Part shown: piece after piece, positions 20,758-43,049 of the stretch
Layout: each line of letters begins with the position of its first letter
How positions within the stretch are numbered: the first letter of the stretch is position 1
Origin: Gemmatimonadota bacterium
GTDB taxonomy: Bacteria; Gemmatimonadota; Gemmatimonadetes; Gemmatimonadales; JACORV01
Reading direction: 5' to 3'
Assembly (NCBI GenBank): GCA_041484135.1
Contig: JBGPHD010000002.1
Coordinates: 1 to 54,871 of the forward strand
DNA: 54,871 nucleotides
Made by a program: the position numbers and the translations under genes
Notes under the pieces: model-generated
Database searches by the model: none
Told to the model about the DNA's origin: nothing
What the model saw: only the letters and a program-made list of their open reading frames with translations

Positions 20758-21780
20758 CTACTGCGGAGCGGCTCCGGCGTACGGCGGATTGCGCTGCAAT
20801 CCCGCCGGCACCGCGAGGCGGCGCGCCGCGGGGAGCAACGGGTTCAGCGCGATGACGAACGCGCGGTCCCTCTCGTGCACGTTGCGGATCTGCGCGTACC
20901 ACTCATGGTAGAACGAGTTGGCCGACGACGTGTACTGCTGCCCCCACGGCTGCCACCGACCCGGCGCCGAGATCATGCTCGCGACATTGTCGCACTCGGC
21001 GGTCGCATCGACCTCGGAGAGCGCGGTGTCGAGCGCGGCCGCGGCCCGCTGGATCGCCGCGTCGGCGGGCAGGCTATCGCCGAATCCGCTCGCGGCCTCG
21101 GTGTAGGTGGTGAGATCCCAATGAAGGTCGCGGCACCGCCGCCACCGGTCACGCTCCCGCTGGGACAGGCTCGTCGTATCGACCGCTCCGCCCAGTGGCT
21201 GCCCCGACGTGTTCCGGAACACTCCCACCAGCGTCACGATCGTGGAGTCGAGCATCTGCGCCAGCCGGCGCGCATACTCGAGCCGGGCCGGCATCGCGCC
21301 GCCCGCGAAGGGCGGGAGCGCCAGTCCGGCGGTGAAACCGCTCGCGGGGCCCGGCGTCGCCGCCGGGGGCTGCGCCACGGCCGGCGGCTGAGTCGCCTGC
21401 GGCGTCACCGGGTTCGGCCGGCCACCCACCGGCGCGACGGGCTGCGCGGTCGGCGCCGCGGGCTGCACGGCGGGCGCCGCCGCGCCGGGCGCACCCATCA
21501 GCGTGGGTGAAGGGCGACGTCCCTTGAGAACGGCGGAGGCCGTCACGGTATCGCGCCGAGCCGGTGTCGCGCCGGGCGCCGGCGGCTGGACGGCGGGGGC
21601 TCCGGTGAGCGGGCAGCCGGTCGCATTGACCCGCACGCCTCGCGGCGTGTTGGGGCAGCGGTCCTGGAGGTTGGGCACGCCATCGCCGTCCAGGTCTCCG
21701 AGATTCTGTTGGGCGGAGAGTGGCGCCGTCAGCGTGACGGCGAGCAGGGCCGAAGCGGCGAGAAGGACGCGTTGATTCAC
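20758..21780 (-). CDS. Secreted protein with thrombospondin type-3-like Ca-binding repeat and Pro/Ala-rich linker
   Basis: Signal peptide MNQRVLLAASALLAVTLTAPLSAQ, then DLDGDGVPNLQDRCPNTP (TSP3/OmpA-type repeat), a P/A/Q-rich low-complexity stretch, and a C-terminal globular part containing Cys residues. Confidence 0.6.
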   Translation of the reverse strand: MNQRVLLAASALLAVTLTAPLSAQQNLGDLDGDGVPNLQDRCPNTPRGVRVNATGCPLTGAPAVQPPAPGATPARRDTVTASAVLKGRRPSPTLMGAPGAAAPAVQPAAPTAQPVAPVGGRPNPVTPQATQPPAVAQPPAATPGPASGFTAGLALPPFAGGAMPARLEYARRLAQMLDSTIVTLVGVFRNTSGQPLGGAVDTTSLSQRERDRWRRCRDLHWDLTTYTEAASGFGDSLPADAAIQRAAAALDTALSEVDATAECDNVASMISAPGRWQPWGQQYTSSANSFYHEWYAQIRNVHERDRAFVIALNPLLPAARRLAVPAGLQRNPPYAGAAPQ

Positions 21781-27774: not shown

Positions 27775-30700
27775 CTATGGAGCGACTGGCGACCGCGCCG
27801 GCCGGGGCGCACTGGGCTGGCGACCCTTCTGCCACGCATTCGGGAATGCCCTCGGGCCAAGGCGCGCGGCGCGCGGCGTCACTGCGGGACTTGGCGGCCG
27901 CTGAGCCGCCTGCTGGCGCGTGGCCTCGGCCCGGGCCTGCTCCCGCTGTGCCAGCGCGGCTCGGCGTTCCCCGGCTGCCAGCGCGGACGTGGGAGCCGAC
28001 GGCGCGGCGGCGCCGGTCCGAACGCGCGCGATGTTCCTGCTCGCCAGCACGCGCGGTGCCGCCGGCACGCCACTCGGCGCGCTCGGCAGGAACGGCATGA
28101 AGATGATGCCCGCCGAGACGACTGAGTCACCCACGGTTGCACCGTTTGTCACGGCGCAGTCCACGCCCGTGACCTCGACTTTGCAACGGGGGCCGAACGG
28201 GTCACCCCAGTAATTGCTGTCGGCGTCCACCGTCGTCGTGTTCGGATAAGCGAGGTTGATCGCCCCGCCGACGACGTTCCCCTGGATGACGTTGTTGGCG
28301 GCGGACGGTGACGTGAACGGGCTGCTCGCATCCACGAAAATGCCGTATGCTCCGTTGCCTTGGAATCGGTTGAACTCGGCGCGTCCGCTCCCTCCGGCGC
28401 CGAAATTGATCCCGTTGTTGGTATTCGCGGCCAGCTTGTTGCTGTCGGCGTGGACCAACGATGCGTACACCCAGATACCGTCCACGCCGCTGCCGGTGAT
28501 GGTATTGCCGGTGGCGAAAACCGTGTCGCTCATGGCGGCGAGCAGCAGCCCAGACAGGCCGCTCCGCGTGATGGTATTCCGGGTGACGCGCGCCGTGAGG
28601 CCGCTGTAGACGTGGATGGCCTCGAGCGCGGTGCTGTCCACCGTGTTCCCCGACACGCTGGTCTGGCCGGTCAGGTTCCCCAAGCGGATGCCGTTCAGAC
28701 CGCTCACGCGGACCACGTTGCTGTCCACCCGGGCGGCGGCGCCGAAGTACATCTCGAGGCCGGTGGTGCTGCTGCTGTCCACGGTGTTGCCGACGATCAC
28801 GGTGGAATCCAACGGCGTGTCGAGATACACGCCATTGCCGTTCGCGATGAAGGCGTTGCGCCGGATCTCCACGGTGCGTTCGCCGTTGTAGGCGGCCACG
28901 CCGGCCTCGAAGCCCCGGATCCGGGAGTCGCGCACCACCAGCCGCCCGCCGTTGACGTGCACTCCCCCCTGGTACACCGTCAACTGTCCGGTAAGATCCG
29001 CCGAGTCCACCTGGACGAGCGTCAGTTGATCCGCGTAGATGCCGATGCCCGTCACCGACACCGTGTCGTGCACGCTGATGAGCGTGTCGGGTCGGCTGCC
29101 GGACTCTCCGCACTCGGCGATGTTGATCCCGTTGTATCGGGCGTTGCTGATGCGGTTCCCGATGGTGGTGACCTCCATCCGGATATCACCGCAGATGTTC
29201 ATGCCGTCGCCCTGCAACGTGTTGCTGAGGTGGTTGTGCCGCAGGGTGTAGCGGCCGCTCTGGAGCTCCAGTCCGTAGCTGCCGAACGAGCTGTCGCGCC
29301 CCGTGGTATCCACCACCAGGGAATCGATCGTCCCCACGGCGGCCGTGGCGGAGAAGCCCGTATGATCGCTGCCGATCACGGTGTCGCCGAGCGAGGTGAG
29401 CGAGACCACCGCGAAGTTGGTGCTCACCTCGATGCCCCGGGCATACCCGGTATAGAGGGTCGGCGTCCCGACGTTCCTCACGGCGTTGTGCTCGAGGACG
29501 ACGATCGGCGCGCTGACGCGGATCCCGGCTCCGGCCGCGTTGGTGACCCGATTCCCCGCGATCACCGCGCGTCCCGCGTCGTGCAGGACCTCGATGCCGA
29601 CGCACTGGGCGTTGGTGATGACGTTGTTGCGCACCTCGCTGAAGTTCACGCTGGACACCGTGATCGCCTGCGGGCTCCCGCAGTAGGGATACGTTCCCAC
29701 GCTGTCGCGCAGGATCTGGTTGTTCCTGACGAACGCCGAGTCCGCCTGGTCGATCTCGATGCCGTCGTCGTTGTAACGGTTGATGACGACGTTCTCCACC
29801 ACCGCACGCCCCAGGTCCCGCTGGCCCGGCGCGGCCCGGGGGCCCGGGCGGGCGGCGCCCTGCACGGAGGCCTGGCTGAGGATCTCGATGGCGGGGACGC
29901 CTCCGCCCTCGCCCAGGTCCCCGAACGCCGAGTCGACGCGCACGTCCCGCACGATGTTGGCGTGGCCCTCGAGGTAGATCCCGTTCCCGCGCACGATGAG
30001 GTGTGCCAGCTCCATCGTCCCCGCCGGGGAGCCGGCGCTCACGGTCTGGCAGCTCGGGCAGCCGTCCAGGCGGGAATCGATGATGGGCCGGTTCAGGGAA
30101 TCGCCGAGCAGGACCACCGACACGCTCGCCGAGACGCGCTCCTCGTACACGCCCCCCGCGACGTGGACGGTGTCACCGTCGCTGGCCACGCTCATCGCGT
30201 CCCCGATGAACGCGAAGGGTAGTGCTGCGGTGCCGGTCTGGGTCGGCGCATAGAGCGAGCGCCCGACGTCCACGAACCAGTTCCGGCGTCGCGCGAGGAC
30301 CACCACCTTGAGCGTGCCCCGCACGCCGGGGCCCAATTCCGCGGTCAGCACCGCGACGCCGGCGTCCCGCGCCTCGACCCGGGGGTTGTAGTAGTCGTTC
30401 ACGAACGCCGCCACCACGGAGTTGGAGGACCTCCATGTGAGGCTGGCCGCCGGCACCACCCGCCCCGACTCGTCCCGCGCCTGGACCTGGACCTGGACCT
30501 GCTGCCCCCTCTGGAGCTCGATGCTGTCTGGGAGCACCACCAGCGTCGAGGCCGCGCCGGTGCCGCAGGCGCCCGCGGCGGGCAGGCCGATGCGGAAGCC
30601 CGTGACCGGCAGGCCGACCGAATTGCTGAGGATGATCAGCGCGTCGCGCGAGGTGACGTTGCCGTCCGCGTCCACGTCGGCGAGCGCGCTCTGCACGATC

Positions 30701-31392
30701 AGGAGCGTGTCGTAGTCGTAGCCTTCGCCGTTGAAGATGGTGTCCACGACCAGCGTGTCCGCCGGGAGCCCCACGACCTTGGACAAGGCGATCAGCCCGT
30801 CGCGGCTGTTGGACACGCCGTCGAAGTCCGTGTCGCCCCAGGTGCCGAGGGACCGGCAGAAGACCCCGTCCACGACCTGCGCGAGCGGCAGCAGGTCGGC
30901 GAACGTGCCGGCCTCGGTCAGCTCCTGGAGGTCGAGCGTGATGGCGCTCGGCGCGGCATCCGTATACACGTAGAAGCGGATGGTGAAGAGCGTGATGACG
31001 CCCGTCGCTCCGCCCGGCCGGAGGGCCGTGAGCTTCAGCACACCGCTCGAGTAAACGCTGTCGGTGTTGACGAGCGGCTCGGCGAACCCGCTCGGCGAAA
31101 GGACCTGACTGTAGGACAGCTGGGCCGGATCGGTCACGAGGCGCAGACGGTAGGCGCCGAGCGAACGCCCCGGGGCGCCCGTCATGTCCACCGTGACCGG
31201 CACATCGACGTAGTTCCCCGTGCGGGCGGCGAGGTCGCCCCCGACGCGCACCACGATCTGCGGCGCGCGCTCGGCGGGGGCGGTGGAAGGGCGGAATGCC
31301 GCCGCGACGGACGCCCAGGGCGCCGGCGCGTGAGCGCCTAACGCCAGCCCGAGCGACGCGAGCGCGACGCGGAAGGTCAGGCCCGCGCTCAC
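27775..31392 (-). CDS. Large secreted protein: cohesin-like + dockerin-like cassette, Big_2, right-handed parallel beta-helix (PbH1/NosD-like) repeats, basic Ala/Arg/Gln-rich tail
   Basis: 1205 aa with a signal peptide. The GTG start overlaps the upstream TGA (GTGA). Dockerin-like repeats GDTDFDGVSNSRDGLIALSKVVGL and ADVDADGNVTSRDALIILSNSVGL. Ig-like segment LVVLPDSIELQRGQQVQVQVQARD. Many N-x-I/V-x-G beta-helix turns, and a terminal SNYWGDPFGP cap. Confidence 0.8.
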   Translation of the reverse strand: MSAGLTFRVALASLGLALGAHAPAPWASVAAAFRPSTAPAERAPQIVVRVGGDLAARTGNYVDVPVTVDMTGAPGRSLGAYRLRLVTDPAQLSYSQVLSPSGFAEPLVNTDSVYSSGVLKLTALRPGGATGVITLFTIRFYVYTDAAPSAITLDLQELTEAGTFADLLPLAQVVDGVFCRSLGTWGDTDFDGVSNSRDGLIALSKVVGLPADTLVVDTIFNGEGYDYDTLLIVQSALADVDADGNVTSRDALIILSNSVGLPVTGFRIGLPAAGACGTGAASTLVVLPDSIELQRGQQVQVQVQARDESGRVVPAASLTWRSSNSVVAAFVNDYYNPRVEARDAGVAVLTAELGPGVRGTLKVVVLARRRNWFVDVGRSLYAPTQTGTAALPFAFIGDAMSVASDGDTVHVAGGVYEERVSASVSVVLLGDSLNRPIIDSRLDGCPSCQTVSAGSPAGTMELAHLIVRGNGIYLEGHANIVRDVRVDSAFGDLGEGGGVPAIEILSQASVQGAARPGPRAAPGQRDLGRAVVENVVINRYNDDGIEIDQADSAFVRNNQILRDSVGTYPYCGSPQAITVSSVNFSEVRNNVITNAQCVGIEVLHDAGRAVIAGNRVTNAAGAGIRVSAPIVVLEHNAVRNVGTPTLYTGYARGIEVSTNFAVVSLTSLGDTVIGSDHTGFSATAAVGTIDSLVVDTTGRDSSFGSYGLELQSGRYTLRHNHLSNTLQGDGMNICGDIRMEVTTIGNRISNARYNGINIAECGESGSRPDTLISVHDTVSVTGIGIYADQLTLVQVDSADLTGQLTVYQGGVHVNGGRLVVRDSRIRGFEAGVAAYNGERTVEIRRNAFIANGNGVYLDTPLDSTVIVGNTVDSSSTTGLEMYFGAAARVDSNVVRVSGLNGIRLGNLTGQTSVSGNTVDSTALEAIHVYSGLTARVTRNTITRSGLSGLLLAAMSDTVFATGNTITGSGVDGIWVYASLVHADSNKLAANTNNGINFGAGGSGRAEFNRFQGNGAYGIFVDASSPFTSPSAANNVIQGNVVGGAINLAYPNTTTVDADSNYWGDPFGPRCKVEVTGVDCAVTNGATVGDSVVSAGIIFMPFLPSAPSGVPAAPRVLASRNIARVRTGAAAPSAPTSALAAGERRAALAQREQARAEATRQQAAQRPPSPAVTPRAARLGPRAFPNAWQKGRQPSAPRPARSPVAP
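30607..31260 (-). other. Cohesin-like + dockerin-like N-terminal cassette of the 1205-aa protein (aa about 45-262)
   Basis: The cohesin-style pattern (TGNYVDVPVTVDM..LGAYRLRLVTDPAQLSY..GVLKLTAL..GVITLFTIRFYV) is followed by two D-x-D-x-D-G-x5-D-a-L repeats. Cys179 and Cys276 flank the dockerin. Confidence 0.6.
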
Positions 31393-32966
31393 GGCGTCCT
31401 CCGGAACGACGGCGCGTCGTCTTCACCCGCGGTCAGGCGACGGATGGCGCCGGTACCGTTCTCGATCAACCAGAGCCCGTGACTGCCAAGAGACTGGAGG
31501 GTGATCACGATGCCCGGCGAGCCCCAGTCGACCAGGTTGGTGAAGTACCCGTACGGGTTCGCGGGCTGGATGCCCGTCAGCCCGATCGCACGCCGCGCCA
31601 CACCGCCGGTTCCCCCCACCAACCACACGCCCGCCTCGCTGGTCTGACCGCTAAGCCGCATGAGGGCGAGCGAGTCTCCCGCGGGCGACCAGCGCACGTC
31701 CCTGAAGCCGTTCGCGGAGAGGCCCGTGATCGTCAGGGCCGTGAGGCTGGAGCCGTCCGCGTTGATCGTCTTCACATTGCCGGACGAGAGGAAGGCGATG
31801 CGTACGCCGTCGCGGTTCCAGGAAGGAGTCCCCCCAGCGGGGATACCGCTCTCGGAGTCGTAGGTCTGGGACAACTGCACCTGCGACCCGCCAGTGGCGG
31901 TCATCGTCCAGAGACGGCCCGTGAGACCGAACACGATCTGCGAGCCGTCGGGCGACCAGTCGAGCGCCTCCATCGAGGTAGGAGTCAGAATGGCGGCGCC
32001 CGAGCCGTCCGTCTGGATCCGGCAGATCTCGCTGGTGAAGATGTCCGCCTGGTAGCAGTAGTAGGCGATCGTCGCGTCGTCGGCTGCGAGACGCGGCCCG
32101 ACCATCTGGCTCGCGTCAGCGCCGGTGGTCACGAGCTGGGGCGTGGTCGAGCCGGCGGCGAGATACATCAGCTGGACGTTGGGGCTCAAGGCCGGTGGCC
32201 AGCGGCGGAAGACCAGGCTCTCGCCCGGGGGCGTAAGCCCCGGGCACACGGACGGCACGCCCAGTGACAGGCGACTGACACCGTTGGTAGGCAGTCCGAT
32301 GGCATAGCTGAGCACCATCAACGCGTCGCGCGAGTTGACCATGCCGTCGGCGTCCACGTCGCCCACGCCGAGGTTGAACCCGTTCACCGGCAGGCCGACC
32401 GCCGCCGACAGCGCGATGAGCGCGTCGCGGGATTCCAGCTTGGCGTTGCCGTCCACGTCGCCGAAGAGCACGGTCGAGGTGCAGACCTGGCTGATCGGCA
32501 CGGTGAAGTTCTGGGCGAACGGATTGCCGTAGGGGTAGTAGCAGTAGTAAAAGAGCTGGGTCGTGTCCGCGGTCGCCCAGATGTACGCGCCGGCTGGTGC
32601 GCCCGGCTTGAGCTTCACCCGCAGCTTGAACGCCCCGACGTCGACGCCGGACACGCACCCGGTCCCTGACACCGTGAAGGTCCCGCTGGTGGTGGCGGAG
32701 TCGGTGATGCCGAGCCCGTCGGGGAGCGCGCCGATGATGTCGATCGCGGCCGGATCGTAGTGGAACGTCAGGCGCGCCGAGTACAGATAGTAGTAATAGC
32801 CGCTCGGGTTGGCGGCGCGGACGGGCAGCTGGACCTCGACGCCCGGCAGGAGCCCCACGGCGGTGTCTCCCGCCACGCTGCCCAGGTAGAAGGTCTGCGC
32901 CCGCGCGCCGCGCACGGCCGTGAGGACGAGCCCGAGGACGAGGAGCCCGGCCGCTGTCCGTCTCAT
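31389..32966 (-). CDS. Secreted protein: cohesin-like + dockerin-like cassette fused to TolB/PD40-type beta-propeller
   Basis: 525 aa with signal peptide MRRTAAGLLVLGLVLTAVRGARAQ. Dockerin repeats GDVDGNAKLESRDALIALSAAVGL and GDVDADGMVNSRDALMVLSYAIGL. Propeller blades with WSPDGSQIVF, SWNRDGVRIAF and WSPAGDSLAL. ATGA overlap upstream and GTGA downstream. Confidence 0.8.
   Translation of the reverse strand: MRRTAAGLLVLGLVLTAVRGARAQTFYLGSVAGDTAVGLLPGVEVQLPVRAANPSGYYYYLYSARLTFHYDPAAIDIIGALPDGLGITDSATTSGTFTVSGTGCVSGVDVGAFKLRVKLKPGAPAGAYIWATADTTQLFYYCYYPYGNPFAQNFTVPISQVCTSTVLFGDVDGNAKLESRDALIALSAAVGLPVNGFNLGVGDVDADGMVNSRDALMVLSYAIGLPTNGVSRLSLGVPSVCPGLTPPGESLVFRRWPPALSPNVQLMYLAAGSTTPQLVTTGADASQMVGPRLAADDATIAYYCYQADIFTSEICRIQTDGSGAAILTPTSMEALDWSPDGSQIVFGLTGRLWTMTATGGSQVQLSQTYDSESGIPAGGTPSWNRDGVRIAFLSSGNVKTINADGSSLTALTITGLSANGFRDVRWSPAGDSLALMRLSGQTSEAGVWLVGGTGGVARRAIGLTGIQPANPYGYFTNLVDWGSPGIVITLQSLGSHGLWLIENGTGAIRRLTAGEDDAPSFRRTP
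32292..32894 (-). other. Cohesin-like + dockerin-like N-terminal cassette of the 525-aa protein (aa about 25-225)
   Basis: Same order and spacing as in the two giant proteins. Cys162 and Cys241 flank the dockerin repeats. Confidence 0.6.
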
Positions 32967-35900
32967 GGCCGCCTCGCTGGTGCGTGGGTCGGCGCCGGCT
33001 GCGGGGTGGGGGCTCCGGCCGTGGGCCGGGCCCGAACGGCAGCGCGCGCCTGCGCGACGCGTGCAGCCTGCGCCGTGCGCGCCTGCTCGAGAGTCGCCCG
33101 CTCAGCCTCAAGCCGGCCCTCGATCCGCGCCGCTGCCGCCGCGCTCGCGACTCCGCGCGCGATCCGCTGCTGCTGCCGCGCCGCGAGGCGCTCGGCACGC
33201 GCCGCCGGAAGCCCGGCGGGGATCCGCGGCGCCGCGACGAACGCCGCCGGCTGCCGGCGCGCCGGGCGTACAGGCGCTGCTGTCCGGGCGGGAGGCATGG
33301 CCGCCTCGGGCGCGGGCAGCGCACGGGACGCCACCACGCGAGGCGCGCGTGCGGCGGTCGTGGCGAGCGCCCGCGGCGCCGGCGGCGGCGAAGACGCGTT
33401 CGGCGCCAGGAGCCATGGGAAGACGGCCCAGCTGTTCGACACGCTGTCACCGAGCGTCGCGGGATCGCAGTCCGAGGCGCAGCGCGGCCCGCGATCGTCC
33501 CCCCACCAGTTGTTGATCGCGTAGGACCCCTCGCTGTTGTCCCGCAACCCGAACGCGTTGCCACTGATGTTGTTCAGCGCGATCCCCCCACCGAAGTTGA
33601 TATAGGGGGAGAGGTAGATGCCCTGGTTCAGGCTGCCCGTGATGGTGTTGCGCGTGAGCAGGCCGTTCCCGTACTCGAAGTCGATGCCCGTGCCGGAGCC
33701 GGAGATCGTGTTCGAGTCCACCTGCATGGTGGTCGTGTCCCCTGAATAGTCGTAGACGAGGACCCCGGAGCCTGCCGCCCGGCGGATGGTGTTGCCCTGG
33801 GCCGCCGCGAAGTACTTGAGGCCGTACATCAGCCGGATGCCATCCTGCTGCACGTCCTGGATGCTGTTCGCCGCCACGACCGCCGTGTCCACGTACTCCA
33901 CGCTGATGCCGTCGCTCTTGGAGAGCGAGATCGTGTTCGAGTCGATCAGGGTGGTGGCCCGGTACCCGTAGTAGTAGTACCCCTGGACGAAGATCAGTCC
34001 GTTCGACAGGTAAGCGCTGCTGTCGCCCGTGATCACGTTGTTGGAGATCCGGGTGCGCGTCGTGCCCTCGGCGTACACGCCGCCGCCGCCGCTGATGCCC
34101 GGCAACGTGATGGTGTTCCGCAGGATGCTGTCGTCCTTCGTGCTGGCCCCGTACTGGCTGAGGTACACGCCGTAGAAGCAGCCGGCGATCACGTTGTCCG
34201 CGACCACCGCGTCGGTGGCGCCGACGTCGACCCCGACGTCACCCTCGAACTGGGTGATGCACTGGACCTGGTTCCGGAGCACGTCGAAGTGCATGCGGAC
34301 GGTGTCGGCGTAGTTGTCGCCGTTGACGCGGATAGCGGTCTGGCCGCCGCGCGTCACGATGTTGTCGGCGACCACGCCCGTCACGGAGGTGTCGTTGAGC
34401 GTCAACGTGATCGAGTAGTTCACGTCGTCGAAGACGTTGCGCTGGACCGATTGGGCGGCGTACCCGAAGGCATCGATCCCCTCCGACTGGCCGGCCACGA
34501 AGGTGTTGTCCTCGATCGTGACGGGGCCGTAGTACGACGTCACGCCGGTGTAGAACCCGTTGATGGTGTTGTTCCGCATCGTCAGGCCCGCCGGGCTGCA
34601 CGTCGGGCACCCGATGAAGTAGTTCCCGTAGAACTGCACCCCGTACTCCACCCGCCGGAACGTCGAGTTGGTGACCGTGAGGCTCGAGTCGCCGTTGGTT
34701 TGCACCGCCTGGTTGACGTTGGTGAAGTCCACGCTGTCCACCGTGGTGCGCGCGTCCTGGGTGTAGACCGCGTCCGCGCAGAGGTCGCAGCGCGGATCCC
34801 CGGTGAAGCTGGTGTTGCGGACGTCCACCACGCCGCCGCCGAACCCGCCGCCGCCCACGTACACCTGGAAGACGCTGTTCGACACGTCGCGGAAATAGCC
34901 GCCCCGCACCCGCACGTACGGCGTGTTGTAGATGTAGCCGCTGGCGGACGGGAGCACCGCCCGCACGGAATCCACCGTGACGCTGTCCAGGTCGTACGCG
35001 GTGAGCCAGTTGTCGTCCGAGTTGTAGATCGAGTCGCCATGGAAGGCGATGAAGCCGCCGCTCGTTTCGCACTGGTTCTGGTAGACCAGGTTGCGCTCGT
35101 CCACCCGCAGCACGTTGTTGGTGAACACCGCCGAGCCCAGGTCCTCGAGGTACATCAGGGTGGAGCCGCTGCGCTGGAGCGTGCTGTTCTCCATGGTCAG
35201 GTGGAACTGCGCGCCGCTGCAGCTTCTCCCCAGCTCGAGCCCGTAGTACGAAAGGTCGTGGATGTTGGACCGCGCGATGGCGACCGAGTCCACGTCCGGC
35301 GCATAGACCCCGGAGCGGCCGAAGTCGCCGATCTCGGTGTCCTCGATGACCAGCGTGTCCACGTGGTAGTTCATCTGGATCGCGTCGGAGTCGAAGTTCT
35401 CGACCCCCCGGCCGATGATCCGGCCCTTCTCGACCCGCACCGAGGCCGTCACGGCGTCGGTCACGATCCCGTTCTCCACGCCCTGGCTCCTGAGGCCGCG
35501 GAGCAGCACGTTGTCGGGCCCGTCGATCTCGACGGCGTTCCAGAGGTTCTCGAAGCCGACGTTGACGATCCGGCGGGGTCCGAGGCCGTACACGTAGACG
35601 CCCGAGCCCGCGAGGAAGGGATCGCCCACGCCGAAGATCGTCGGCCGCGTCCCGTCCAGGAGGGTGTCGCCCAGCAGCACGATGTCGGCGCCGATATCGA
35701 CCGGCCCCTGATACCGCCCCGGCCGGAGCTCGATGGTGTCGCCCGCCTGCGCGAAGTCGAGGGCCTGGGCGGTCGTCCCGAAGGGCAGCGCGGCGGTACC
35801 GATCTGGTTGGTGGCGTTCACGGCCGCGGCGTCCACGACATGCCGGGTGCGCGACGCGAGGACCGTGATGGTCGCCTGCGCCGAATCGTTGGCGCCCCGG

Positions 35901-36901
35901 AGCGCCGTGATGACGACCGAACCAGCGGTGTAGGCGCTGAGGAGTCCGTCCGCGTCCACGTCGGCGATCTCCACGTCGCTGGAACGCCAGGTCACGTCGC
36001 GCAGGGTCTGGAGCGCGCCGCCGGCCACCGCCGCCCGGGCCTCCAGCTGCACCGTCTGGTCCCGCACGATGTCCACCGGGACGGGCGTGATGGACATCGC
36101 GATGGCACCGCCGGCCGCGCACGCGCCGCCGGCCAGCAGCCCGATGCGGAAGCTGGTGACATCGATCCCGACCGCGTACGACAGGATGATCAGCGCGTCG
36201 CGGGTATCGGTGACGCCGTTGCCGTCCACGTCCCCGAGGGGGATGGCGAAGTTCCCGACGTTCAGGCCCACGGCGTTGGAGACCGCGATGAGCGCGTCGA
36301 GGCTGTTGACGAACCCGTCCTGGTTGATGTCCCCGTAGAGGCCACCCGCGGGGCAGAAGAGGCGGTTCGTCACCAGCGCGCTCGGCCGGAGGTTGGCGAA
36401 GGTGCCGGCCGCGTAGAGCTCGCTCAGGCTCATCACGAGGGTGGTCGTGTCGCCGATGAGCGGCGTGAAGCGCAGCGTGCCGAGCGTCACCATGCCGCCG
36501 GCGCCGGCCGGATTGATGCCCGCGAGCCGCAGGACGCCGTCGTTCAGCGAATCGGTATTGGCCGTCGTGACGCCGAAGGTGCCGTTGATGAGCGCGTCGA
36601 ACTGCAGCACCGCCGGGTTCCAGGAGAGCCGGGCCGCGAAGGAGCCGATCTTCTCCGTGCGCAGCGTCATGTCCGCGATGATCGGCGTGTAGAACGGCAC
36701 GCCGACCACCGAGGTCAGCTGGCCCCCGGGCCCCACGGGGATCTCCTGGGCACGCGCGGCCCGGGGCGCGAACGCCGCCCCGAGCAGGGCGAGGACGATC
36801 GGCGCCACGCGCCTCACGGCCTTCCCTCCGGTCCGCGCGCGGGAGCGGAGCCCAGGGAGGCCCCGCCGGCGCGGTCCGTCGTGCGACCCGGTCGTCATCA
36901 C
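32963..36901 (-). CDS. Large secreted protein: cohesin-like + dockerin-like cassette, Big_2, long parallel beta-helix, basic Ala/Arg/Gln-rich coiled tail
   Basis: 1312 aa with a signal peptide ending APRAARAQ. Dockerin repeats GDINQDGFVNSLDALIAVSNAVGL and GDVDGNGVTDTRDALIILSYAVGI. Big_2-like segment (VTWRSSDVEIADVDADGLLSAYTAGSVVITAL). Dozens of beta-helix turns, and an NNWWGDDRGP cap. Confidence 0.8.
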   Translation of the reverse strand: MMTTGSHDGPRRRGLPGLRSRARTGGKAVRRVAPIVLALLGAAFAPRAARAQEIPVGPGGQLTSVVGVPFYTPIIADMTLRTEKIGSFAARLSWNPAVLQFDALINGTFGVTTANTDSLNDGVLRLAGINPAGAGGMVTLGTLRFTPLIGDTTTLVMSLSELYAAGTFANLRPSALVTNRLFCPAGGLYGDINQDGFVNSLDALIAVSNAVGLNVGNFAIPLGDVDGNGVTDTRDALIILSYAVGIDVTSFRIGLLAGGACAAGGAIAMSITPVPVDIVRDQTVQLEARAAVAGGALQTLRDVTWRSSDVEIADVDADGLLSAYTAGSVVITALRGANDSAQATITVLASRTRHVVDAAAVNATNQIGTAALPFGTTAQALDFAQAGDTIELRPGRYQGPVDIGADIVLLGDTLLDGTRPTIFGVGDPFLAGSGVYVYGLGPRRIVNVGFENLWNAVEIDGPDNVLLRGLRSQGVENGIVTDAVTASVRVEKGRIIGRGVENFDSDAIQMNYHVDTLVIEDTEIGDFGRSGVYAPDVDSVAIARSNIHDLSYYGLELGRSCSGAQFHLTMENSTLQRSGSTLMYLEDLGSAVFTNNVLRVDERNLVYQNQCETSGGFIAFHGDSIYNSDDNWLTAYDLDSVTVDSVRAVLPSASGYIYNTPYVRVRGGYFRDVSNSVFQVYVGGGGFGGGVVDVRNTSFTGDPRCDLCADAVYTQDARTTVDSVDFTNVNQAVQTNGDSSLTVTNSTFRRVEYGVQFYGNYFIGCPTCSPAGLTMRNNTINGFYTGVTSYYGPVTIEDNTFVAGQSEGIDAFGYAAQSVQRNVFDDVNYSITLTLNDTSVTGVVADNIVTRGGQTAIRVNGDNYADTVRMHFDVLRNQVQCITQFEGDVGVDVGATDAVVADNVIAGCFYGVYLSQYGASTKDDSILRNTITLPGISGGGGVYAEGTTRTRISNNVITGDSSAYLSNGLIFVQGYYYYGYRATTLIDSNTISLSKSDGISVEYVDTAVVAANSIQDVQQDGIRLMYGLKYFAAAQGNTIRRAAGSGVLVYDYSGDTTTMQVDSNTISGSGTGIDFEYGNGLLTRNTITGSLNQGIYLSPYINFGGGIALNNISGNAFGLRDNSEGSYAINNWWGDDRGPRCASDCDPATLGDSVSNSWAVFPWLLAPNASSPPPAPRALATTAARAPRVVASRALPAPEAAMPPARTAAPVRPARRQPAAFVAAPRIPAGLPAARAERLAARQQQRIARGVASAAAAARIEGRLEAERATLEQARTAQAARVAQARAAVRARPTAGAPTPQPAPTHAPARRP
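36164..36745 (-). other. Cohesin-like + dockerin-like N-terminal cassette of the 1312-aa protein (aa about 53-246)
   Basis: Pattern VVGVPFYTPIIADM..IGSFAARLSWNPAVLQF..GVLRLAGIN..GMVTLGTLRF, then the two Ca-binding repeats. Cys183 and Cys261 flank the dockerin. Confidence 0.6.
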
Positions 36902-36908: not shown

Positions 36909-37430
36909 CTAGTGGCTCGCCGCGCGGCTGAGGAAGACCTGCGGGGAGACGCGCAGCTGCGCCTGCAGGTTGGTCAGCGACATCGCCGCCGACAGCTCCT
37001 CCATCTGCAGCACGAGGTCCGCCGCGTAGTTGGCGCCCTTCACCTCGAAGGTGCCGTCGTACAGCACCAGGTTGGCGAACCCGCCCGCCGACGCTCCGGC
37101 GAACCGGATCTCGCCGCGCGGCGCGTTGGCCGGGTTGGCCACCCGCAGGCCGTCGCTGATCACGTTCTCGCTCCTGAACTCGAGGCGCGCCGGGTTGAAG
37201 CGCAGCCGGCCCGTGAAGCTTCCCAGCTTGAAGTTCTGCTGGGTGCCGACCTGGACCTCGACGCGGACGCGGACCGTCTGGCCGACCCGCGCCGTCAGGT
37301 TGTCCACGGTGACGAACGCCTGCACCCCCGTCTGGGTGGGCGGCGGCGTCGGCGCGGTGGGCCGCGCCGGCTGGTCCTGGCAGGCGGTGACCGCCAGGCT
37401 GATGAGGGCGAGTCTGAGAACGTGCATCAT
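36909..37430 (-). CDS. Small lipoprotein consisting of a single cohesin-like domain
   Basis: 173 aa with lipobox LISLAVTAC, a Pro/Thr linker, then ARVGQTVRVRVEVQVG..KLGSFTGRLRFNPARLEF..GEIRFAGAS..LVLYDGTFEV, the same pattern as the other cohesin-like modules. Confidence 0.7.
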   Translation of the reverse strand: MMHVLRLALISLAVTACQDQPARPTAPTPPPTQTGVQAFVTVDNLTARVGQTVRVRVEVQVGTQQNFKLGSFTGRLRFNPARLEFRSENVISDGLRVANPANAPRGEIRFAGASAGGFANLVLYDGTFEVKGANYAADLVLQMEELSAAMSLTNLQAQLRVSPQVFLSRAASH

Positions 37431-37470: not shown

Positions 37471-40197
37471 TCACTGTACGCGTACCGTGCTGGCGGTGAT
37501 CACCGCCGCCGACACGTACTGGGTGAAGGTCGGGTTGATGCCCGACAGGTCCGTGACCGAGAACGTGAGCGGCGAATTGCCCACGGCGTTGGCCACGAAC
37601 ACCACCATCACGAGGCCGACGGTCGGTCCGGCGGTGCCCACCGCGTTGGCCGCGCCGAAGCGCAGCTGGCCGCTCGCCGTCGCCGACTCGTTCAACGTGG
37701 GCGCCACGAACCCGCCGGCGACCGGATCGCTCCGCACGTAGGTCAGCGCCGCGGTGCTCCAATCGAGCTCCGCGTTGTAGCTGCCGAGCTTGTCCGGCGC
37801 GACGCGGCGCAGGTCCACCTGCACCAGCACCCGCACCGTGTCGCCCGGCTTGACGATGTCGAACGCGCGCCCGTCGCTGATGGCGCTCACCACGGCGGCC
37901 CCGACGCCCGCCACCGCCACGGTGATGGAATCGAACACGGTGCCGGTGCTGCCGACGGCCGACGCCACGATCACCGTGGTACCGTTGGTGTTGCCGGTGA
38001 CGAGGCCCGCCGCGTTCACCGACGCTACCGCCGGCGTGCGCGAGACGAACGTCAGTCCGGTCACCGTCGCGGCGGCGCCGCCGGCGTCCTTGCCGGTGAC
38101 GCTCAACGACACCGTCCCGTCGACCAGCAGCACGCTGAATCCGGGCGCCACGGTGATCGCGGTCAGGGGCGGCGGCGCCACCACGAAGGTCACGGCGACC
38201 GTCCGCGGGCTGTTGCTCGCCACCGGCGAGGTCACCGGCACCGTCGCCGTGTAGGTGCCTGCCGAGAGCCCGGCGAGCGACGCGGTGAGCGTGAGCGTAG
38301 CCGGCGCGGTGGCGGGGTCGTTGGTGAAGTTGCCGTCGGCGTTCAAGTCGGGGAACCTGGCCGTCAGCCAGCCGGTCGCCCCCGCCCCGTACGTGATAGT
38401 GCCGACGAGGAGGCCGTTCAGCGTGCCGCCGCTGCTGTTGGTCACACTCACGGTCTGTGACGCGGGGTTGGCCAGCGTGACGGTGCCGTTGAACGTGATC
38501 GTCGCCGGCGCGAGGGCGATGGCCGGCCCGGCCGCGACGTTGAAGGTGACCGACACCGTCTGCGGACTGTTGGTCGCCACGCCCGACGTCACCGGCACGC
38601 TCGCCGTGTAGGTGCCCGCGGCGAGGCCCGTGATGTTCGGGGTGAGCGTGAGGGTGGACGGCGCCGTCGAGGTCGAGAACGAAGCGCTGAGCCAGCCGGT
38701 CGCCCCCGCGCCGTAGGTGATGGCGCCCGTCGCGAGACCGCTCAACGTCCCGCCGCTGCTGTTCGTCACGCTGACCGTCTGTGCCGCGGGGCTCGCGCCC
38801 GTCGCGATGCCGTTGAACGTGATGGTGGTGGGCGCGAGCGCGATGGCCGGCCCCGCCCCGACGACGAACGAGACCGAGACCGTCTGCGGGCTGTTGCTCG
38901 CCACGCCCGACGTCACCGGCACCGTGGCCGTGTACGTGCCGACGGCGAGGCCCGTGATCGTCGGCGTCAGCGTCAGCGTGGACGGCGCCGTGGTGTTGAG
39001 CGAGGCCGCCAGCCAGCCCGTCGCCCCCGCCCCGTACGTGATGGTGCCGACGGCGAGGCCGCTCAGCGTTCCGCCGCCGCCGTTCGTCACGTTCACCGTC
39101 TTCGCCGCGGGACTCGCGCCGCCGGTGACGCCGTTGAACGAGACGGCCGTGGGCGCGAGCGCGATGGCCGGCGGCGGGGCCACGACGAACGTGACCGCGA
39201 CCGACTGCGGGCTGTTCGACACACCGGACGCGGTGACCGGGACGGTCGCCGTATAGGTGCCCGCCGGGAGACTGTCTACTTGGGGCGTCAGCGTGAGCGT
39301 CGCCGGAGCCGTCGTCCCACCTAACGTCGCCGAGAGCCAGTCGGTGGCACCCGTCCCGTACGCGATCGTGCCGACCGCGAGGCCCGCGAGGACCTGGCCG
39401 CCGACGTTCGTCACCGCGACCGTCTGCGCCGCCGGATCGGACCCGCCGGACACCCCGTTGAACGTGATCGTCGTCGGGGCCAAGCCGATCAACGGCGCCG
39501 GCGCCGACGTCACGGTGACGCGGGCGCTGTCCCGGATCGTGTTCCTCGCCACGCTCGCGATGATGATCTCGACGACGCCGTCCGCCATGCCGAGCACCCG
39601 GCCCGCGGCGTCCACCTGCGCGATGTGGTTGTCCCGCGAGCGGAAGTGCACCGGCACGCTGTCGTCGGGCATCGCGACACCGAGCGTGTCGAAGCCCGTG
39701 TACGTGAGCGCCGCCGCCTGGCCGGGATTGATGGCGAACTGCCGCGGGTTCACGACCAGCGACCCGATGCCCTTGCCGGGGCCCACGTAGCCGGCCTGCA
39801 CCGGCTGCGGTGGCGCCGGGATGCCGGCGTGCAGCTCGACCGACTGCGTGCCCGCGTAGAGCTCCGTGCCCGAGGTCGAGTTGAACCCGTGGAACGCGAT
39901 GCCCACGGTGTCCAGCCCGCCGCCGACCCGCACAACGACCGAGAGCTGGATGGTGTCCTGCCCCGGCGGCAGGTGCCGGTAGATGGTGTCGGGCGGATTG
40001 GGCGGATTGTTGATCTCGAAGCGGAACGAGTCCACGTCGCTCGGCGCGCCGTCGAGCGGGCCGTAGCCTTCGAAGACCGGATAGAACGCCAATTGCACAC
40101 GCTGCCCGGCGTCGGGGGCGAGGGAGTCGAAGCATCCGAGGGCCGACAGGCACACGGACACCACCACTGCCAGGGCCGCCGGACGGGCTGCTCTCAC
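37471..40197 (-). CDS. Scaffoldin-like lipoprotein: N-terminal domain, Big_2, four tandem Ig-like (BACON/ASH-like) repeats, Big_2, C-terminal cohesin-like domain
   Basis: 908 aa with lipobox CLSALGC. The GTG start overlaps the upstream TGA (GTGA). Four repeats of 107-119 aa. C-terminus: VKPGDTVRVLVQVDL..LGSYNAELDWSTAALTY..GQLRFGAAN..VGLVMVVFVA. Confidence 0.8.
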   Translation of the reverse strand: MRAARPAALAVVVSVCLSALGCFDSLAPDAGQRVQLAFYPVFEGYGPLDGAPSDVDSFRFEINNPPNPPDTIYRHLPPGQDTIQLSVVVRVGGGLDTVGIAFHGFNSTSGTELYAGTQSVELHAGIPAPPQPVQAGYVGPGKGIGSLVVNPRQFAINPGQAAALTYTGFDTLGVAMPDDSVPVHFRSRDNHIAQVDAAGRVLGMADGVVEIIIASVARNTIRDSARVTVTSAPAPLIGLAPTTITFNGVSGGSDPAAQTVAVTNVGGQVLAGLAVGTIAYGTGATDWLSATLGGTTAPATLTLTPQVDSLPAGTYTATVPVTASGVSNSPQSVAVTFVVAPPPAIALAPTAVSFNGVTGGASPAAKTVNVTNGGGGTLSGLAVGTITYGAGATGWLAASLNTTAPSTLTLTPTITGLAVGTYTATVPVTSGVASNSPQTVSVSFVVGAGPAIALAPTTITFNGIATGASPAAQTVSVTNSSGGTLSGLATGAITYGAGATGWLSASFSTSTAPSTLTLTPNITGLAAGTYTASVPVTSGVATNSPQTVSVTFNVAAGPAIALAPATITFNGTVTLANPASQTVSVTNSSGGTLNGLLVGTITYGAGATGWLTARFPDLNADGNFTNDPATAPATLTLTASLAGLSAGTYTATVPVTSPVASNSPRTVAVTFVVAPPPLTAITVAPGFSVLLVDGTVSLSVTGKDAGGAAATVTGLTFVSRTPAVASVNAAGLVTGNTNGTTVIVASAVGSTGTVFDSITVAVAGVGAAVVSAISDGRAFDIVKPGDTVRVLVQVDLRRVAPDKLGSYNAELDWSTAALTYVRSDPVAGGFVAPTLNESATASGQLRFGAANAVGTAGPTVGLVMVVFVANAVGNSPLTFSVTDLSGINPTFTQYVSAAVITASTVRVQ
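38179..39504 (-). repeat. Four in-frame tandem coding repeats (321-357 bp each) inside the scaffoldin-like gene
   Basis: Protein repeats at aa 232-339, 340-446, 447-554 and 555-673. Consensus: PAIALAPTTITFNG..G.SPAAQTVSVTN.GGGTLSGLAVGTITYGAGATGWL.AS....APSTLTLTP.ITGLAAGTYTATVPVTSGVASNSPQTVSVTFVV. Recurring DNA landmarks cgccgt(g/a)ta(g/c)gtgcc lie at about 38247, 38603, 38925 and 39248. Confidence 0.85.
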
Positions 40198-41294
40198 ATC
40201 GTCTTCCGCACCGACATGCCGATACTGAAGCCCCGGAAGCCGATGTTGGTGGCGCCGCTGGGCAGGCTGCCGGTGTCGAAACGCAGGGACGGCTGGATCG
40301 ACATCGTCTCGCCCACCGCCACCTGATAGCGCAGGCCGAGCGAGAGCAGCGTGCCGGCCTTGGTCAACGTACTGTCTCCCTCACCGATCATGCGATACTC
40401 GACCGAGGGACGCAGCAGGTTGCGGCCACGCGTGAACGACAATCCCGCGCCGACCGTCACGAGGTTCTGCTTGCCAGTGGTCTGGCCGTTGATCGGCACG
40501 TCGCCCGCCGCCCGGTAGAGATCCCACCCGTACAGCGACAAGCCGACGTTGCCGAGCGGCAAGCTCAGCGACACCTGGCTGATGTACCGCCGCCCGGGAC
40601 GGAAGACGTCGGCGCCGCCGAACTCGTCGGTGCTGAAGCTCGAGTAGGTGAAGCCGGCCGAGAACCGCCCCTGGCCGATCACCCGGTCCACGCCCGCGCG
40701 GATGCGCACTTCGGCTCCCGCCCGGTACGTCGAATCCACACCCGCCAGCGGCGTGAAGCTGCCGCTCATCCGGTAGCTCCCGGCGATCCCGAGCGCCCAG
40801 CCGCCTAACGGCAGGGCCAGCGCGAGTCCCGTGGTGACGCTGGCGCCCGAGCCGAAGTTCGCCACCGGGAACGGGAAGAGGTTGGAGCCGATGGCGCCGG
40901 CCACCGCCAACTCGTCGTTGGAGAGCTTGGTCTTGCCGGTCGGGATGTTGGCCGTGAGCGTGAAGAGCGCCTTGTCGGAGATCAGCTGCACCACCGCGCG
41001 GGCCTGGATGTCCGTGAGCCCCGTGATCGTGCCGCTCCCCCCGGTCTCGTCGGTGCGCTGCGCCCGCGCGAAGCGCGTCCCGATGTCCACCGTGAACCGG
41101 TTCGAGAAGGGGAAGACCAGGCCGACGGGGACGACGAGCTCCGTCACCGTCTTGGTGCCGATCCCCGCGTCGAACGACAGGGAACGGTACTCCGCGCCGG
41201 TGTAGAGCGTCGGGCGCGCCTCCTGGGCGCACAGGGCCGCCGGCGCGACGAGCAGCGCCAGGAGGGCCGAGCGAGTCATCCGGGCAGCGCTCAT
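40194..41294 (-). CDS. Putative outer-membrane beta-barrel protein
   Basis: 366 aa with signal peptide MSAARMTRSALLALLVAPAALCAQ. Alternating hydrophobic beta-strand pattern with Gly/Ser/Thr-rich loops throughout. ATGA overlap with the upstream lipoprotein gene and GTGA with the downstream gene. Confidence 0.65.
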   Translation of the reverse strand: MSAARMTRSALLALLVAPAALCAQEARPTLYTGAEYRSLSFDAGIGTKTVTELVVPVGLVFPFSNRFTVDIGTRFARAQRTDETGGSGTITGLTDIQARAVVQLISDKALFTLTANIPTGKTKLSNDELAVAGAIGSNLFPFPVANFGSGASVTTGLALALPLGGWALGIAGSYRMSGSFTPLAGVDSTYRAGAEVRIRAGVDRVIGQGRFSAGFTYSSFSTDEFGGADVFRPGRRYISQVSLSLPLGNVGLSLYGWDLYRAAGDVPINGQTTGKQNLVTVGAGLSFTRGRNLLRPSVEYRMIGEGDSTLTKAGTLLSLGLRYQVAVGETMSIQPSLRFDTGSLPSGATNIGFRGFSIGMSVRKTM

Positions 41295-42637
41295 GTCGGC
41301 CTCCGGATGACGATCACGACGGTGCCGGTGGTGGGCCGGACGCTGCCGCCGGTCACCTCCGACGTGTTGTTGCGGTTGGCGGGCGGCGTCGTCTGCGTCT
41401 GCTGCTGCGCCGCCTGGTCCGACGTCTGCGTCCCCGCGACCGCGTTGGCCGCGTTATTGAGCGCGTCGGTCGGCGCGCCGGCGGGTCCGGCGGCCTCCTG
41501 CTGCGCGTTCTGCGTCACGGTGACGTCCACGTCGCTCACTGACTGGGTCGAGGCGGCGGAGAGGTCGGTGGCCGTCGCGGCGCCCTGCACCGCGGCCACG
41601 AAGCTCGGGTCGAGGCCCGACGCCTGGGTGTACGCCTCGCGCGCGGCCTGGAAGTCGCCCATGTCCTCGGCCTCGAGCCCGCGGCTGTAGGCGAGGAAGG
41701 CCTGGATGTTCTGGGTCGGACGCTGGTTGATCGAGGCCCGCTCCGCGTCGCTGAGCTGGATGCCGAGGTTCTCGAAGATCGAGAAGACGAGCGCCTTCTC
41801 GAGGTCGAAGATGCGACTGAGCTGGTCCGAGGCGTTGCCCGTGGCGGCCACGCCGGCGCTGCTCACGTCCACGACGGCCGCGTCCACGCGGAGCTGGTCG
41901 CCGCGCTCGGCGATCGTCCCCTGCACCACGCGTTCGGCCCGCAGCAGGCGGCCGCTGCGGACCGCGGTCTGCTGCTCGACCCGGTTCTGCTCCGACAGCC
42001 GCATCTCGTCCAGCATCGACTGCATCCGCTCGCGCTCCAGGACCACCACCTGCCGCGACTTGGCGAGGTCGGTGATCACCAGTTGCGCCAGGCCGCGGCC
42101 GAGCGGCTGGATCTGCGGGTTGGTCCCGGTATAGCTGAAGGGCATCACGGCAACGGTGTTGGGGGTCGGCGGCGTCTGGAGCAGCGTGGCTTCCGAGGCC
42201 AGCGACTGCCGCGCCTGGAACTCCAGCTCCCGCCGGCCGATGAGGGCGAGACGTTGCCGCGCGGTGTTCCGGAGCTCCCGGCTGCGCGCCACCGTGACAT
42301 AGCGCTCGTAGGCCGTGCGCGCGGCGGGGAAGTCGCCGAGCGCCTCGGTGGTCATGCCGAGATAGATGGCCGCGATGCCGTTGGAAGGATCGCGCGCCGC
42401 GGCGGTATCGAGCGCCGTCCGCGCTTCCTCATACCGGTTGGCCTTGAAGTACGCCACGCCCAGACGGGTGAGCGTCATGGGGTCGTTGGGCCGCTGGCTC
42501 CGCTCCGCCTCGAGCGAGGGAATGGACTGGGGTGTGATATCGCCGATGCGCAACGCCCCGCCGCCGGCACAGGCGGCGAGCGACGCGAGCAGCCCGAAAC
42601 GGACAACGTCCCGGGCGCGACGAAGGAGAGTGCTCAT
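41291..42637 (-). CDS. Lipoprotein with TPR repeats, CsgG/TolB-N-like domain and Gln/Thr/Ala-rich tail
   Basis: Trimmed to ATG 42637 (MSTLLRRARDVVRFGLLASLAACAGG, with lipobox). TPR-like LTRLGVAYFKANRYEEARTALDTAAARDPSN. Then VAVMPFSYTGTNPQIQPLGRGLAQLVITDLAKSRQVVVLERERMQSMLDEM, a CsgG-type signature. Confidence 0.75.
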   Translation of the reverse strand: MSTLLRRARDVVRFGLLASLAACAGGGALRIGDITPQSIPSLEAERSQRPNDPMTLTRLGVAYFKANRYEEARTALDTAAARDPSNGIAAIYLGMTTEALGDFPAARTAYERYVTVARSRELRNTARQRLALIGRRELEFQARQSLASEATLLQTPPTPNTVAVMPFSYTGTNPQIQPLGRGLAQLVITDLAKSRQVVVLERERMQSMLDEMRLSEQNRVEQQTAVRSGRLLRAERVVQGTIAERGDQLRVDAAVVDVSSAGVAATGNASDQLSRIFDLEKALVFSIFENLGIQLSDAERASINQRPTQNIQAFLAYSRGLEAEDMGDFQAAREAYTQASGLDPSFVAAVQGAATATDLSAASTQSVSDVDVTVTQNAQQEAAGPAGAPTDALNNAANAVAGTQTSDQAAQQQTQTTPPANRNNTSEVTGGSVRPTTGTVVIVIRRPT

Positions 42638-42800: not shown

Positions 42801-43049
42801 TTATCGGCCGCGCACCGGGGAAGCGGGAGCGCGCCAGCGCATGACCCGCACTTCCGTCTGAGAGAGGATCTCGGCGATCACGGCCTTGGTCCGGGCGTCC
42901 ACCGGCCAGTCGAAGTGCATCTCGAGCCGGTAGCCGGCGCGGTCCGCGCCGCGCCCCTCCATCACGAACCCGTCCGGTGTCGCGAGCACCTCGTCGATCG
43001 GGACGTCGGCGACAAGGTCGAGTTCCGGCAACTGCTTGGGACCGGGCAT
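42801..43049 (-). CDS. Small hypothetical protein (82 aa)
   Basis: Trimmed to ATG 43049, which is preceded by a strong SD (GGAGGTGTTTC-ATG). Acidic, globular-looking sequence MPGPKQLPELDLVADVPIDEVLATPDGFVMEGRG... Confidence 0.55.
   Translation of the reverse strand: MPGPKQLPELDLVADVPIDEVLATPDGFVMEGRGADRAGYRLEMHFDWPVDARTKAVIAEILSQTEVRVMRWRAPASPVRGR

Follow-up and report, generated by a model that had tools for sequence, protein, structure and literature searches.

Cysteine-bracketed cohesin-dockerin cassettes: candidate modules for docking in a conserved envelope operon of Gemmatimonadales

What can a secreted protein do with a cohesin and a dockerin, a socket and a plug, side by side in one chain? 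Docking between these two modules is understood almost only from the cellulosomes of Gram-positive anaerobes, and many non-cellulosomal cases have been annotated and left unexplained. The question is raised here by a contig of a Gemmatimonadota bacterium (order Gemmatimonadales; NCBI GenBank assembly GCA_041484135.1, contig JBGPHD010000002.1, positions 1 to 54,871 of the forward strand; this whole stretch of 54,871 nucleotides is called the window). An earlier note, made from the sequence of the window, described three paralogous cassettes of a cohesin-like and a dockerin-like module, each at the N-terminus of a different protein and each with a pair of cysteines bracketing the dockerin. The three proteins, which we call W3, W2 and W1 in gene order, are encoded as follows:

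32963..36901, minus strand: W3, 1312 residues, secreted; signal peptide, cohesin, dockerin, Big_2 domain, right-handed beta-helix and a basic coiled-coil tail.
31389..32966, minus strand: W2, 525 residues, secreted; signal peptide, cohesin, dockerin and a TolB/PD40-like beta-propeller.
27775..31392, minus strand: W1, 1205 residues, secreted; signal peptide, cohesin, dockerin, beta-helix and a basic tail.

The answer that we favour, and to which we give about an even chance, is that the cassettes are docking modules of an envelope operon conserved in Gemmatimonadales, in which dockerins closed by a disulfide would bind paralogous cohesins in trans. Below we ask in turn whether the modules are what they appear to be, what the cysteines may do, and whether a dockerin is more plausibly directed at its own cohesin, at that of an identical copy or at that of another protein.

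The cassettes belong to a large family. An exhaustive profile search of 1.84 billion cluster representatives (50%-identity clusters) recovered 212 proteins at E<1e-30, against only 1, and then 5, relatives found with the cassette by word-indexed homology search. From 150 listed of the 212 matches we drew 147 full cassettes, including those of the window, and aligned them with hmmalign; they sit at residues ~20-240 of proteins of 1000-1350 residues. In the window, whose G+C content is ~72%, GC content at third codon positions (GC3) shows that the minus-strand genes running from 42793 to 27775 are coding. The W1, W2 and W3 frames are taken as coding because of their GC3 of 0.90-0.94 (0.94 in W3), and each gene of the three overlaps its neighbour by 4 nucleotides, stop on start. 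Plus-strand open reading frames that overlap these genes were rejected as high-GC artefacts on the basis of GC3, and an origin of the cassettes by chance or artefact was rejected on the basis of coding GC3 and of the 212 family representatives. All six peptide strings quoted in the earlier note occur in the W1-W3 translations, and its picture of one paralogous cassette in front of three different bodies (beta-helix, propeller, beta-helix) agrees with the Pfam and NCBIfam matches: W3 to Beta_helix (8e-28), NosD and Big_2 (1.5e-9), W1 to Beta_helix (1e-30), and W2 to the NCBIfam TolB propeller (1.3e-8), the NCBIfam matches of the cargo proteins being sub-threshold similarities to NosD and TolB only.

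The first module of each cassette lies at:

36353..36751, minus strand: W3 cohesin, residues 51-183; the first cysteine of the bracket (Cys1) is C183, codon 36353-36355, in the last beta-strand.
32481-32897, minus strand: W2 cohesin, residues 24-162; Cys1 is C162.
30856-31260, minus strand: W1 cohesin, residues 45-179; Cys1 is C179.

Against the Pfam Cohesin family (PF00963, gathering threshold 24.1 bits), W1 scored 20.8 bits and W2 13.5 bits, all sub-threshold, and no match was returned for W3 or for either of the two cohesin-only lipoproteins described below. Because Pfam Cohesin matched only below threshold, we examined the fold with a structure model. For the W3 cassette, an AlphaFold2 model based on an alignment of 41 family sequences reached a mean predicted local distance difference test score (pLDDT) of 93.4 and a predicted template modelling score (pTM) of 0.83; it consists of nine strands followed by the dockerin helices. 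A Foldseek comparison of the model with the PDB placed first 2XDH, a non-cellulosomal cohesin of Archaeoglobus fulgidus (template modelling (TM) score 0.80, root-mean-square deviation 2.3 Å), followed by more than 30 solved type I, II and III cohesins at probability 1.00. Judged by its modelled structure, then, the cohesin-like part is a genuine cohesin fold. The cassette cohesins are a divergent subfamily, linked to PF00963 by a relative with tandem cohesins (P0151) that reaches 72 bits against Pfam Cohesin. The W2 cohesin has, in addition, two extra cysteines (residues 104 and 142, in the contexts GCVSG and YYCYY; window 32541-32657) and Tyr-rich strands that are kept in W2-type orthologues, and the conserved cysteine pair suggests that cohesins of this type may hold a second disulfide.

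The second module follows directly:

36119..36352, minus strand: W3 dockerin, residues 184-261; calcium loops at 36296-36331 and 36197-36232.
36119-36121, minus strand: codon of C261, the second cysteine of the bracket (Cys2) in W3.
32244-32480, minus strand: W2 dockerin, residues 163-241; Cys2 is C241.
30565-30855, minus strand: W1 dockerin, residues 180-276, with a 40-residue spacer between the loops; Cys2 is C276.

W2 (25.3 bits) and W3 (24.5 bits) both exceed the gathering threshold of Pfam Dockerin_1 (PF00404, 22.9 bits). The Pfam scan did not report Dockerin_1 in W1, probably because of its 40-residue spacer, a long variant shared by 7 of 134 family cassettes. A sequence search of the PDB with the C-terminal third of the cassette returned dockerins (8X39 at 9.5e-7, 4UYP_B at 3.4e-4, 2CCL_B and others). 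W1, W2 and W3 each have two F-hand repeats of ~22 residues with ligands at positions 1, 3, 5, 9 and 12 and a helix after each repeat (model residues 163-173 and 196-206 in W3). Calcium ligands are present in all six loops of the window, with positions 1, 3, 5 and 12 filled in W3; across the family, Asp occupies positions 1 and 12 of both loops in 134 of 134 cassettes, and positions 3 and 5 are Asp, Asn or Ser. The residue immediately before loop 1 (position -1) is Trp, Tyr or Phe in 128 of the 134. In a mean-field direct coupling analysis of 171 cassettes (effective number of sequences 155), this aromatic residue covaries with a conserved Arg after helix 3 (rank 25), a pair that would form the dockerin clasp, and the analysis also picks up, in each F-hand, the pair between loop positions 3 and 11, as well as the contacts between helix 1 and helix 3. 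Taken on sequence, the dockerin-like part is a genuine two-F-hand dockerin. Cohesin and dockerin modules therefore do occur in cis, as the earlier note had proposed, on the evidence of the AlphaFold2 and Foldseek results and of Dockerin_1 in W2 and W3. Its cassette boundaries correctly enclosed the cohesin and the dockerin helices (W1 residues 45-262, W2 residues 25-225, W3 residues 53-246) and stopped 14-16 residues short of Cys2.

The cysteine bracket is real, and its spacing is tighter than first described. In W1, W2 and W3 alike, exactly 7 residues lie between Cys1 and the Asp that opens the first calcium loop, as in 119 of 134 family cassettes, and Cys2 follows the last Asp ligand of the second loop after 25-26 intervening residues (25 in 107 of the 134). 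Conservation of the pair and of the calcium ligands among homologues had been suggested as a check; Cys1 is present in 146 and Cys2 in 140 of the 147 aligned cassettes, far more than chance would give, and the loss of the pair in close homologues, which the earlier note had listed as counting against its reading, is therefore not borne out. A separate metagenome scan with a cohesin-only alignment yielded 20 loci at 49-77% identity, and both cysteines are present in all 36 complete cassettes that these contain. Free-standing dockerins encoded beside related multi-cohesin proteins lack the bracket, which is therefore specific to the cohesin-dockerin fusion and not a property of dockerins generally.

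The position of the cysteines hints at what they may do. The last cohesin strand of the W3 model contains Cys1, and the dockerin is flanked by short bridges at model residues 150-151 and 219-220; should the former pair with the latter in antiparallel fashion, both cysteines (model residues 146 and 224) would fall in register. All three proteins have a signal peptide, and their cysteine totals are even (10 in W1, 6 in W2 and 12 in W3). The placement of the pair, the even counts and the signal peptides are consistent with a predicted disulfide, formed after export, at the base of the dockerin. Dockerins and their binding sites are known to be stabilised by a non-covalent intramolecular clasp (PMC3821032), and on the model the cysteine pair looks like a second, covalent lock just outside it. 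No natural counterpart of such a disulfide-competent dockerin bracket was found in the literature searched.

Such a lock could also fix the dockerin in the wrong place for docking. Only ~5 residues, with no linker, join the last cohesin strand to the first calcium loop, and a pTM of 0.83 is too high for independently placed domains, so the cohesin and dockerin of a cassette probably form one rigid unit with a fixed mutual orientation. One alternative explanation has the dockerin permanently packed against the cohesin of its own chain and stapled to it; the cassette would then serve as a rigid N-terminal cap or as a ligand-binding domain, and the lipoprotein cohesins would bind something else. 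The missing linker and the fixed orientation fit this, the disulfide would tie the chain back to the cohesin, and the same Cys-bracketed cassette recurs as a self-contained unit at the C-terminus of unrelated Ig-repeat proteins (P0141 and P0157). We nevertheless consider it unlikely. Both helices and the calcium ligands show the conservation seen in dockerins that can bind, the two repeats are nearly symmetric as in dual-binding dockerins, and the conserved dockerin-less cohesin paralogues of the operon would be left with no partner. The geometry of type I complexes adds a further difficulty, in that a dockerin joined to the end of strand 9 by only 5 residues could probably not reach the 8-3-6-5 face of the same cohesin.

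The dockerin-less paralogues are encoded just upstream, in the remaining genes of the operon:

36909..37430, minus strand: 173-residue lipoprotein with lipobox VTAC (C17), a short Pro-rich tether and a single cohesin.
37471..40197, minus strand: 908-residue lipoprotein; Ig-like repeats and Big_2-like domains, then a cohesin at the C-terminus (~37474-37920), without a dockerin.
40194..41294, minus strand: predicted outer-membrane beta-barrel protein of 366 residues with a signal peptide; weak match to Pfam OMP_b-brl (3e-4, under the cut-off).
41291..42637, minus strand: TPR lipoprotein with a CsgG/TolB_N/LpoB-like domain and lipobox LAAC; the likely start is M53 of an open reading frame running to 42793.

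The two cohesin-only lipoproteins mentioned in the earlier note are thus present. The shorter has no dockerin and no further cysteine; it aligns with the cassette cohesin at an HHalign probability of 98.1%, and its AlphaFold2 model (pLDDT 83) retrieves almost exclusively cohesins among the top 50 Foldseek matches (TM score ~0.66-0.68), with nothing found by sequence search of the PDB. For the last 150 residues of the longer, the HHalign probability is 99.6%. The gene of this Ig-repeat lipoprotein contains 324-bp tandem repeats at 38359-39474 (3.5 copies, 74-81% matches) that encode Ig-like repeats of ~108 residues, and repeat copy number varies between orthologues, giving proteins of 458-908 residues. 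Lipoboxes are conserved in all three lipoproteins of the operon, that of the 173-residue protein in 11 orthologues. In total the operon encodes five cohesin paralogues and three dockerins, and the dockerins occur only in the cassettes. The family motifs LGSxxxRLxW, GxLRxxG and ELxAAGTF are also kept in the dockerin-less cohesins and so are not explained by packing in cis alone.

The first two genes of the operon prompt a different idea, that the N-terminal cassette is a sorting tag by which the TPR/CsgG-like lipoprotein and the barrel recognise three cargo proteins and move or place them, with no stable cohesin-dockerin assembly. The cargo proteins of the operon, all of them and only these, do carry the cassette straight after the signal peptide, and the genes for the TPR lipoprotein with its CsgG/TolB_N-like domain and for the barrel always come first. 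The CsgG match, however, is limited to the N-terminal alpha/beta part (profile positions 6-98 of 210). We know of no secretion system that takes a folded, disulfide-bonded N-terminal cohesin-dockerin unit as its signal, and docking accounts better for the cohesin-only lipoproteins; a sorting role is accordingly the reading to which we give least credence.

Is this set of genes a stable one? The gene order (TPR lipoprotein, barrel, Ig-repeat lipoprotein, short cohesin lipoprotein, W3, sometimes an extra gene, W2, W1) is the same wherever a contig is long enough, on at least 15 contigs. In an NCBI assembly and in a 1.2-Mb ENA contig the operon occupies the same chromosomal site, downstream of SLT, a PD40 protein and lepB. 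The shared order and site indicate a vertically inherited trait of this lineage. The host is a diderm member of the Gemmatimonadales, as seen from OEP, TonB receptors and the signal peptidase gene lepB, whose product is 79% identical to Gemmatimonadales/Gemmatimonadota proteins; one cassette relative is also so named. In four loci of the metagenome scan (L006, L009, L013 and L014), a gene for one more beta-helix paralogue, of 1246-1428 residues, lies between the cohesin-lipoprotein gene and the W3-type gene and brings the cassette proteins to four.

Two kinds of variant bear on the choice of partner. In locus L025 (JGI Ga0480572_0001975, 1-15585) the cohesin-lipoprotein gene is duplicated, and one protein, P0083, is a chimera. 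It starts with a signal peptide and a cassette almost the same as the one encoded by the adjacent beta-helix gene, and continues as the large lipoprotein does, with the Ig-repeat body and the C-terminal cohesin; from its sequence, P0083 is an Ig-lipoprotein paralogue with its lipid anchor swapped for a cassette. In other lineages (L026, 10001-21410; L027, 1444-5746), proteins with 3-4 tandem cohesins of the subfamily adjoin dockerin-bearing FGE-sulfatase/VWA proteins and a dockerin-bearing metallophosphatase; this is the classical split arrangement, in small scaffoldin-enzyme sets that are not cellulolytic. Four indirect arguments lead us to favour docking in trans: the only dockerins of the operon are always accompanied by genes for cohesins that lack a dockerin, the most conserved blocks of the family are common to cohesins without a dockerin in cis, relatives show the split arrangement, and L025 puts a cassette in the place of a lipid anchor.

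Docking between chains need not involve the lipoproteins. The earlier note had put forward a homotypic daisy chain, in which the dockerin of one copy would enter the cohesin of the next and the beta-helix proteins would grow head to tail into filaments or lattices. Each cassette protein has the one plug and one socket that this calls for, and the dockerin helices are near-identical in the three paralogues, which makes self and cross binding equally possible by sequence. A precedent exists in Amy4 of R. bromii, which has a cohesin and a dockerin in one chain; the cohesin binds the protein's own dockerin, and Amy4 can multimerise, with species of >250 kDa (PMC4611034). Pure self-chaining, however, would have no need of the two dockerin-less lipoprotein cohesins that are always in the operon, and the coupling analysis, of low power at this depth, detected no within-chain covariation between the cohesin face and the dockerin helices. 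We regard the homotypic chain as quite improbable. The alternative that the note offered beside it, docking of the cassettes on the two cohesin-only lipoproteins, would fit the conserved operon best.

In the mechanism that we propose for this docking in trans, Cys1, in the last cohesin strand, and Cys2, ~25 residues past the second calcium loop, would form a disulfide after Sec export. This would close the dockerin into a covalent loop just outside the putative non-covalent clasp between the -1 aromatic residue and the conserved Arg. In the presence of Ca2+, the dockerins would then bind paralogous cohesins in trans, the first-choice partners being the two cohesin-only lipoproteins, whose genes lie immediately upstream, with the cohesins of the other cassettes as further possible partners. 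The two beta-helix proteins and the beta-propeller protein would thereby be tethered to the membrane as a hetero-oligomer, which could be extended because five sockets are available for three plugs. We infer the disulfide, the binding in trans, the choice of partner and the compartment (the periplasmic face or the cell surface).

Several observations weigh against this mechanism. The Pfam Cohesin scores are below threshold. The coupling analysis, with low power on its 171 cassettes, gave scattered pairs and no coherent cohesin-dockerin interface. The three dockerins of the window have nearly identical helix residues (SRDALIxLS in both repeats), and therefore no partner specificity can be read from their sequences. 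The high pTM suggests that the dockerin touches its own cohesin, which leaves room for a dockerin occluded in cis. Finally, the operon contains no recognisable secretion system for proteins of 1200-1300 residues.

How far is the system a known one? Scaffoldins and adaptor scaffoldins carry both a cohesin and a dockerin, and so do proteins of A. fulgidus. The premise of the earlier note, that the two modules are usually split between scaffoldin and enzyme, is too simple in view of scaffoldins, Amy4, archaea of the ANME groups and sulfate reducers, all of which have both. Domain annotation has identified proteins with adjacent cohesin and dockerin domains in ANME archaea (PMC9012536) and in syntrophic sulfate reducers (PMC10553843).

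Compared with cellulosomal type I pairs and adaptor scaffoldins (C. thermocellum CipA, A. cellulolyticus ScaA/ScaB; PDB 1OHZ and 4UYP), the cassettes have the same two folds, two F-hand calcium loops, near-duplicate helices and an aromatic residue at -1, where the known clasp has one (PMC3821032). They differ in having one cohesin per protein in the window and no multi-cohesin scaffoldin, no Pro/Thr linker between modules, an invariant disulfide-competent cysteine pair, lipoprotein anchors in a diderm instead of SLH (S-layer homology) or sortase anchoring, and beta-helix and propeller cargo with no recognisable glycoside hydrolase domain. Pfam assigned the cargo proteins to no glycoside hydrolase, polysaccharide lyase or carbohydrate esterase family, only to the generic Beta_helix/NosD and PD40, and no relative of the W3 beta-helix was found by sequence in the PDB. 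We therefore rejected membership of the cellulosome class, given that the locus lacks a multi-cohesin scaffoldin, any recognisable carbohydrate-active enzyme and anchoring by SLH domains or sortase.

Amy4 and the A. fulgidus proteins (2XDH) are closer in one respect, since cohesin and dockerin share a non-scaffoldin polypeptide, and 2XDH is also the best structural match of the cassette cohesin. In Amy4, however, the modules stand apart from each other, C-terminal to the enzyme, and both systems belong to monoderm or archaeal envelopes, with no reported cysteine bracket and no conserved lipoprotein-cohesin operon. The "adhesins" of ANME archaea and sulfate reducers, known from annotation only, resemble the Gemmatimonadales system in their non-cellulolytic hosts, which include diderms, and in combining Ig-like domains with an adjacent cohesin and dockerin, an architecture shared by P0141 and P0157; they differ in the C-terminal position of the cassette, which is N-terminal here, and in operon and lineage. 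The union of cohesin and dockerin in one chain is thus already known. What looks new, as far as the literature searched shows, is the linker-less cassette with an invariant cysteine bracket, its lipoprotein anchoring in a diderm and its conserved Gemmatimonadales operon.

Some further features of the window deserve mention. W3 (32963-33400) and W1 (27775-28150) end in a low-complexity tail of 100-150 residues that begins after an NxWWGD..GPxC motif, with a Pro/Ala stretch containing PxAPR(F/L/V)LA and then an Arg/Ala/Gln/Glu-rich segment resembling a basic coiled coil; the composition is kept in orthologues (loci L004-L021), and oligomerisation or binding to anionic surfaces are possible roles. 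Upstream of the operon, a small open reading frame of 117 residues (42801-43154, minus strand) overlaps a terminator-like hairpin (43057-43087) and is conserved in one fetched locus only (L010, 4376-4675, 3e-33). Elsewhere in the window, long open reading frames with coding-type GC3 at 6126-9868, 11106-15620 and 17161-17796 (433, 814, 816, 665 and 211 residues) matched no Pfam family at E<1e-4. One of 340 residues (20758-21780, minus strand) matches the calcium-binding thrombospondin type 3 repeat at 23.5 bits, just under the Pfam threshold of 25.

For a phylum that is widespread in soil and whose surface biology has hardly been characterised, the locus is a test case both compact and phylogenetically conserved. 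Its gene order is fixed and its lipid anchors are defined, and with five cohesins and three dockerins to combine, every pairing could be measured. The linker-less, Cys-bracketed cassette would be a natural example of a covalently clasped dockerin, relevant to the way dockerins withstand force and heat, and might find use as a building block for designer scaffolds. A bolder and distinctly tentative reading is that Gemmatimonadales build a lipid-anchored, self-extending assembly to which each subunit adds a disulfide-stapled plug and a fresh socket, so that beta-helix and propeller proteins would be ordered into a chain or lattice, perhaps an S-layer-like coat or a polysaccharide-processing machine working on cellulosome logic in an outer-membrane or periplasmic setting. 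If the complex is indeed periplasmic or bound to the outer membrane, the cohesin-dockerin principle of assembly would extend to the diderm envelope.

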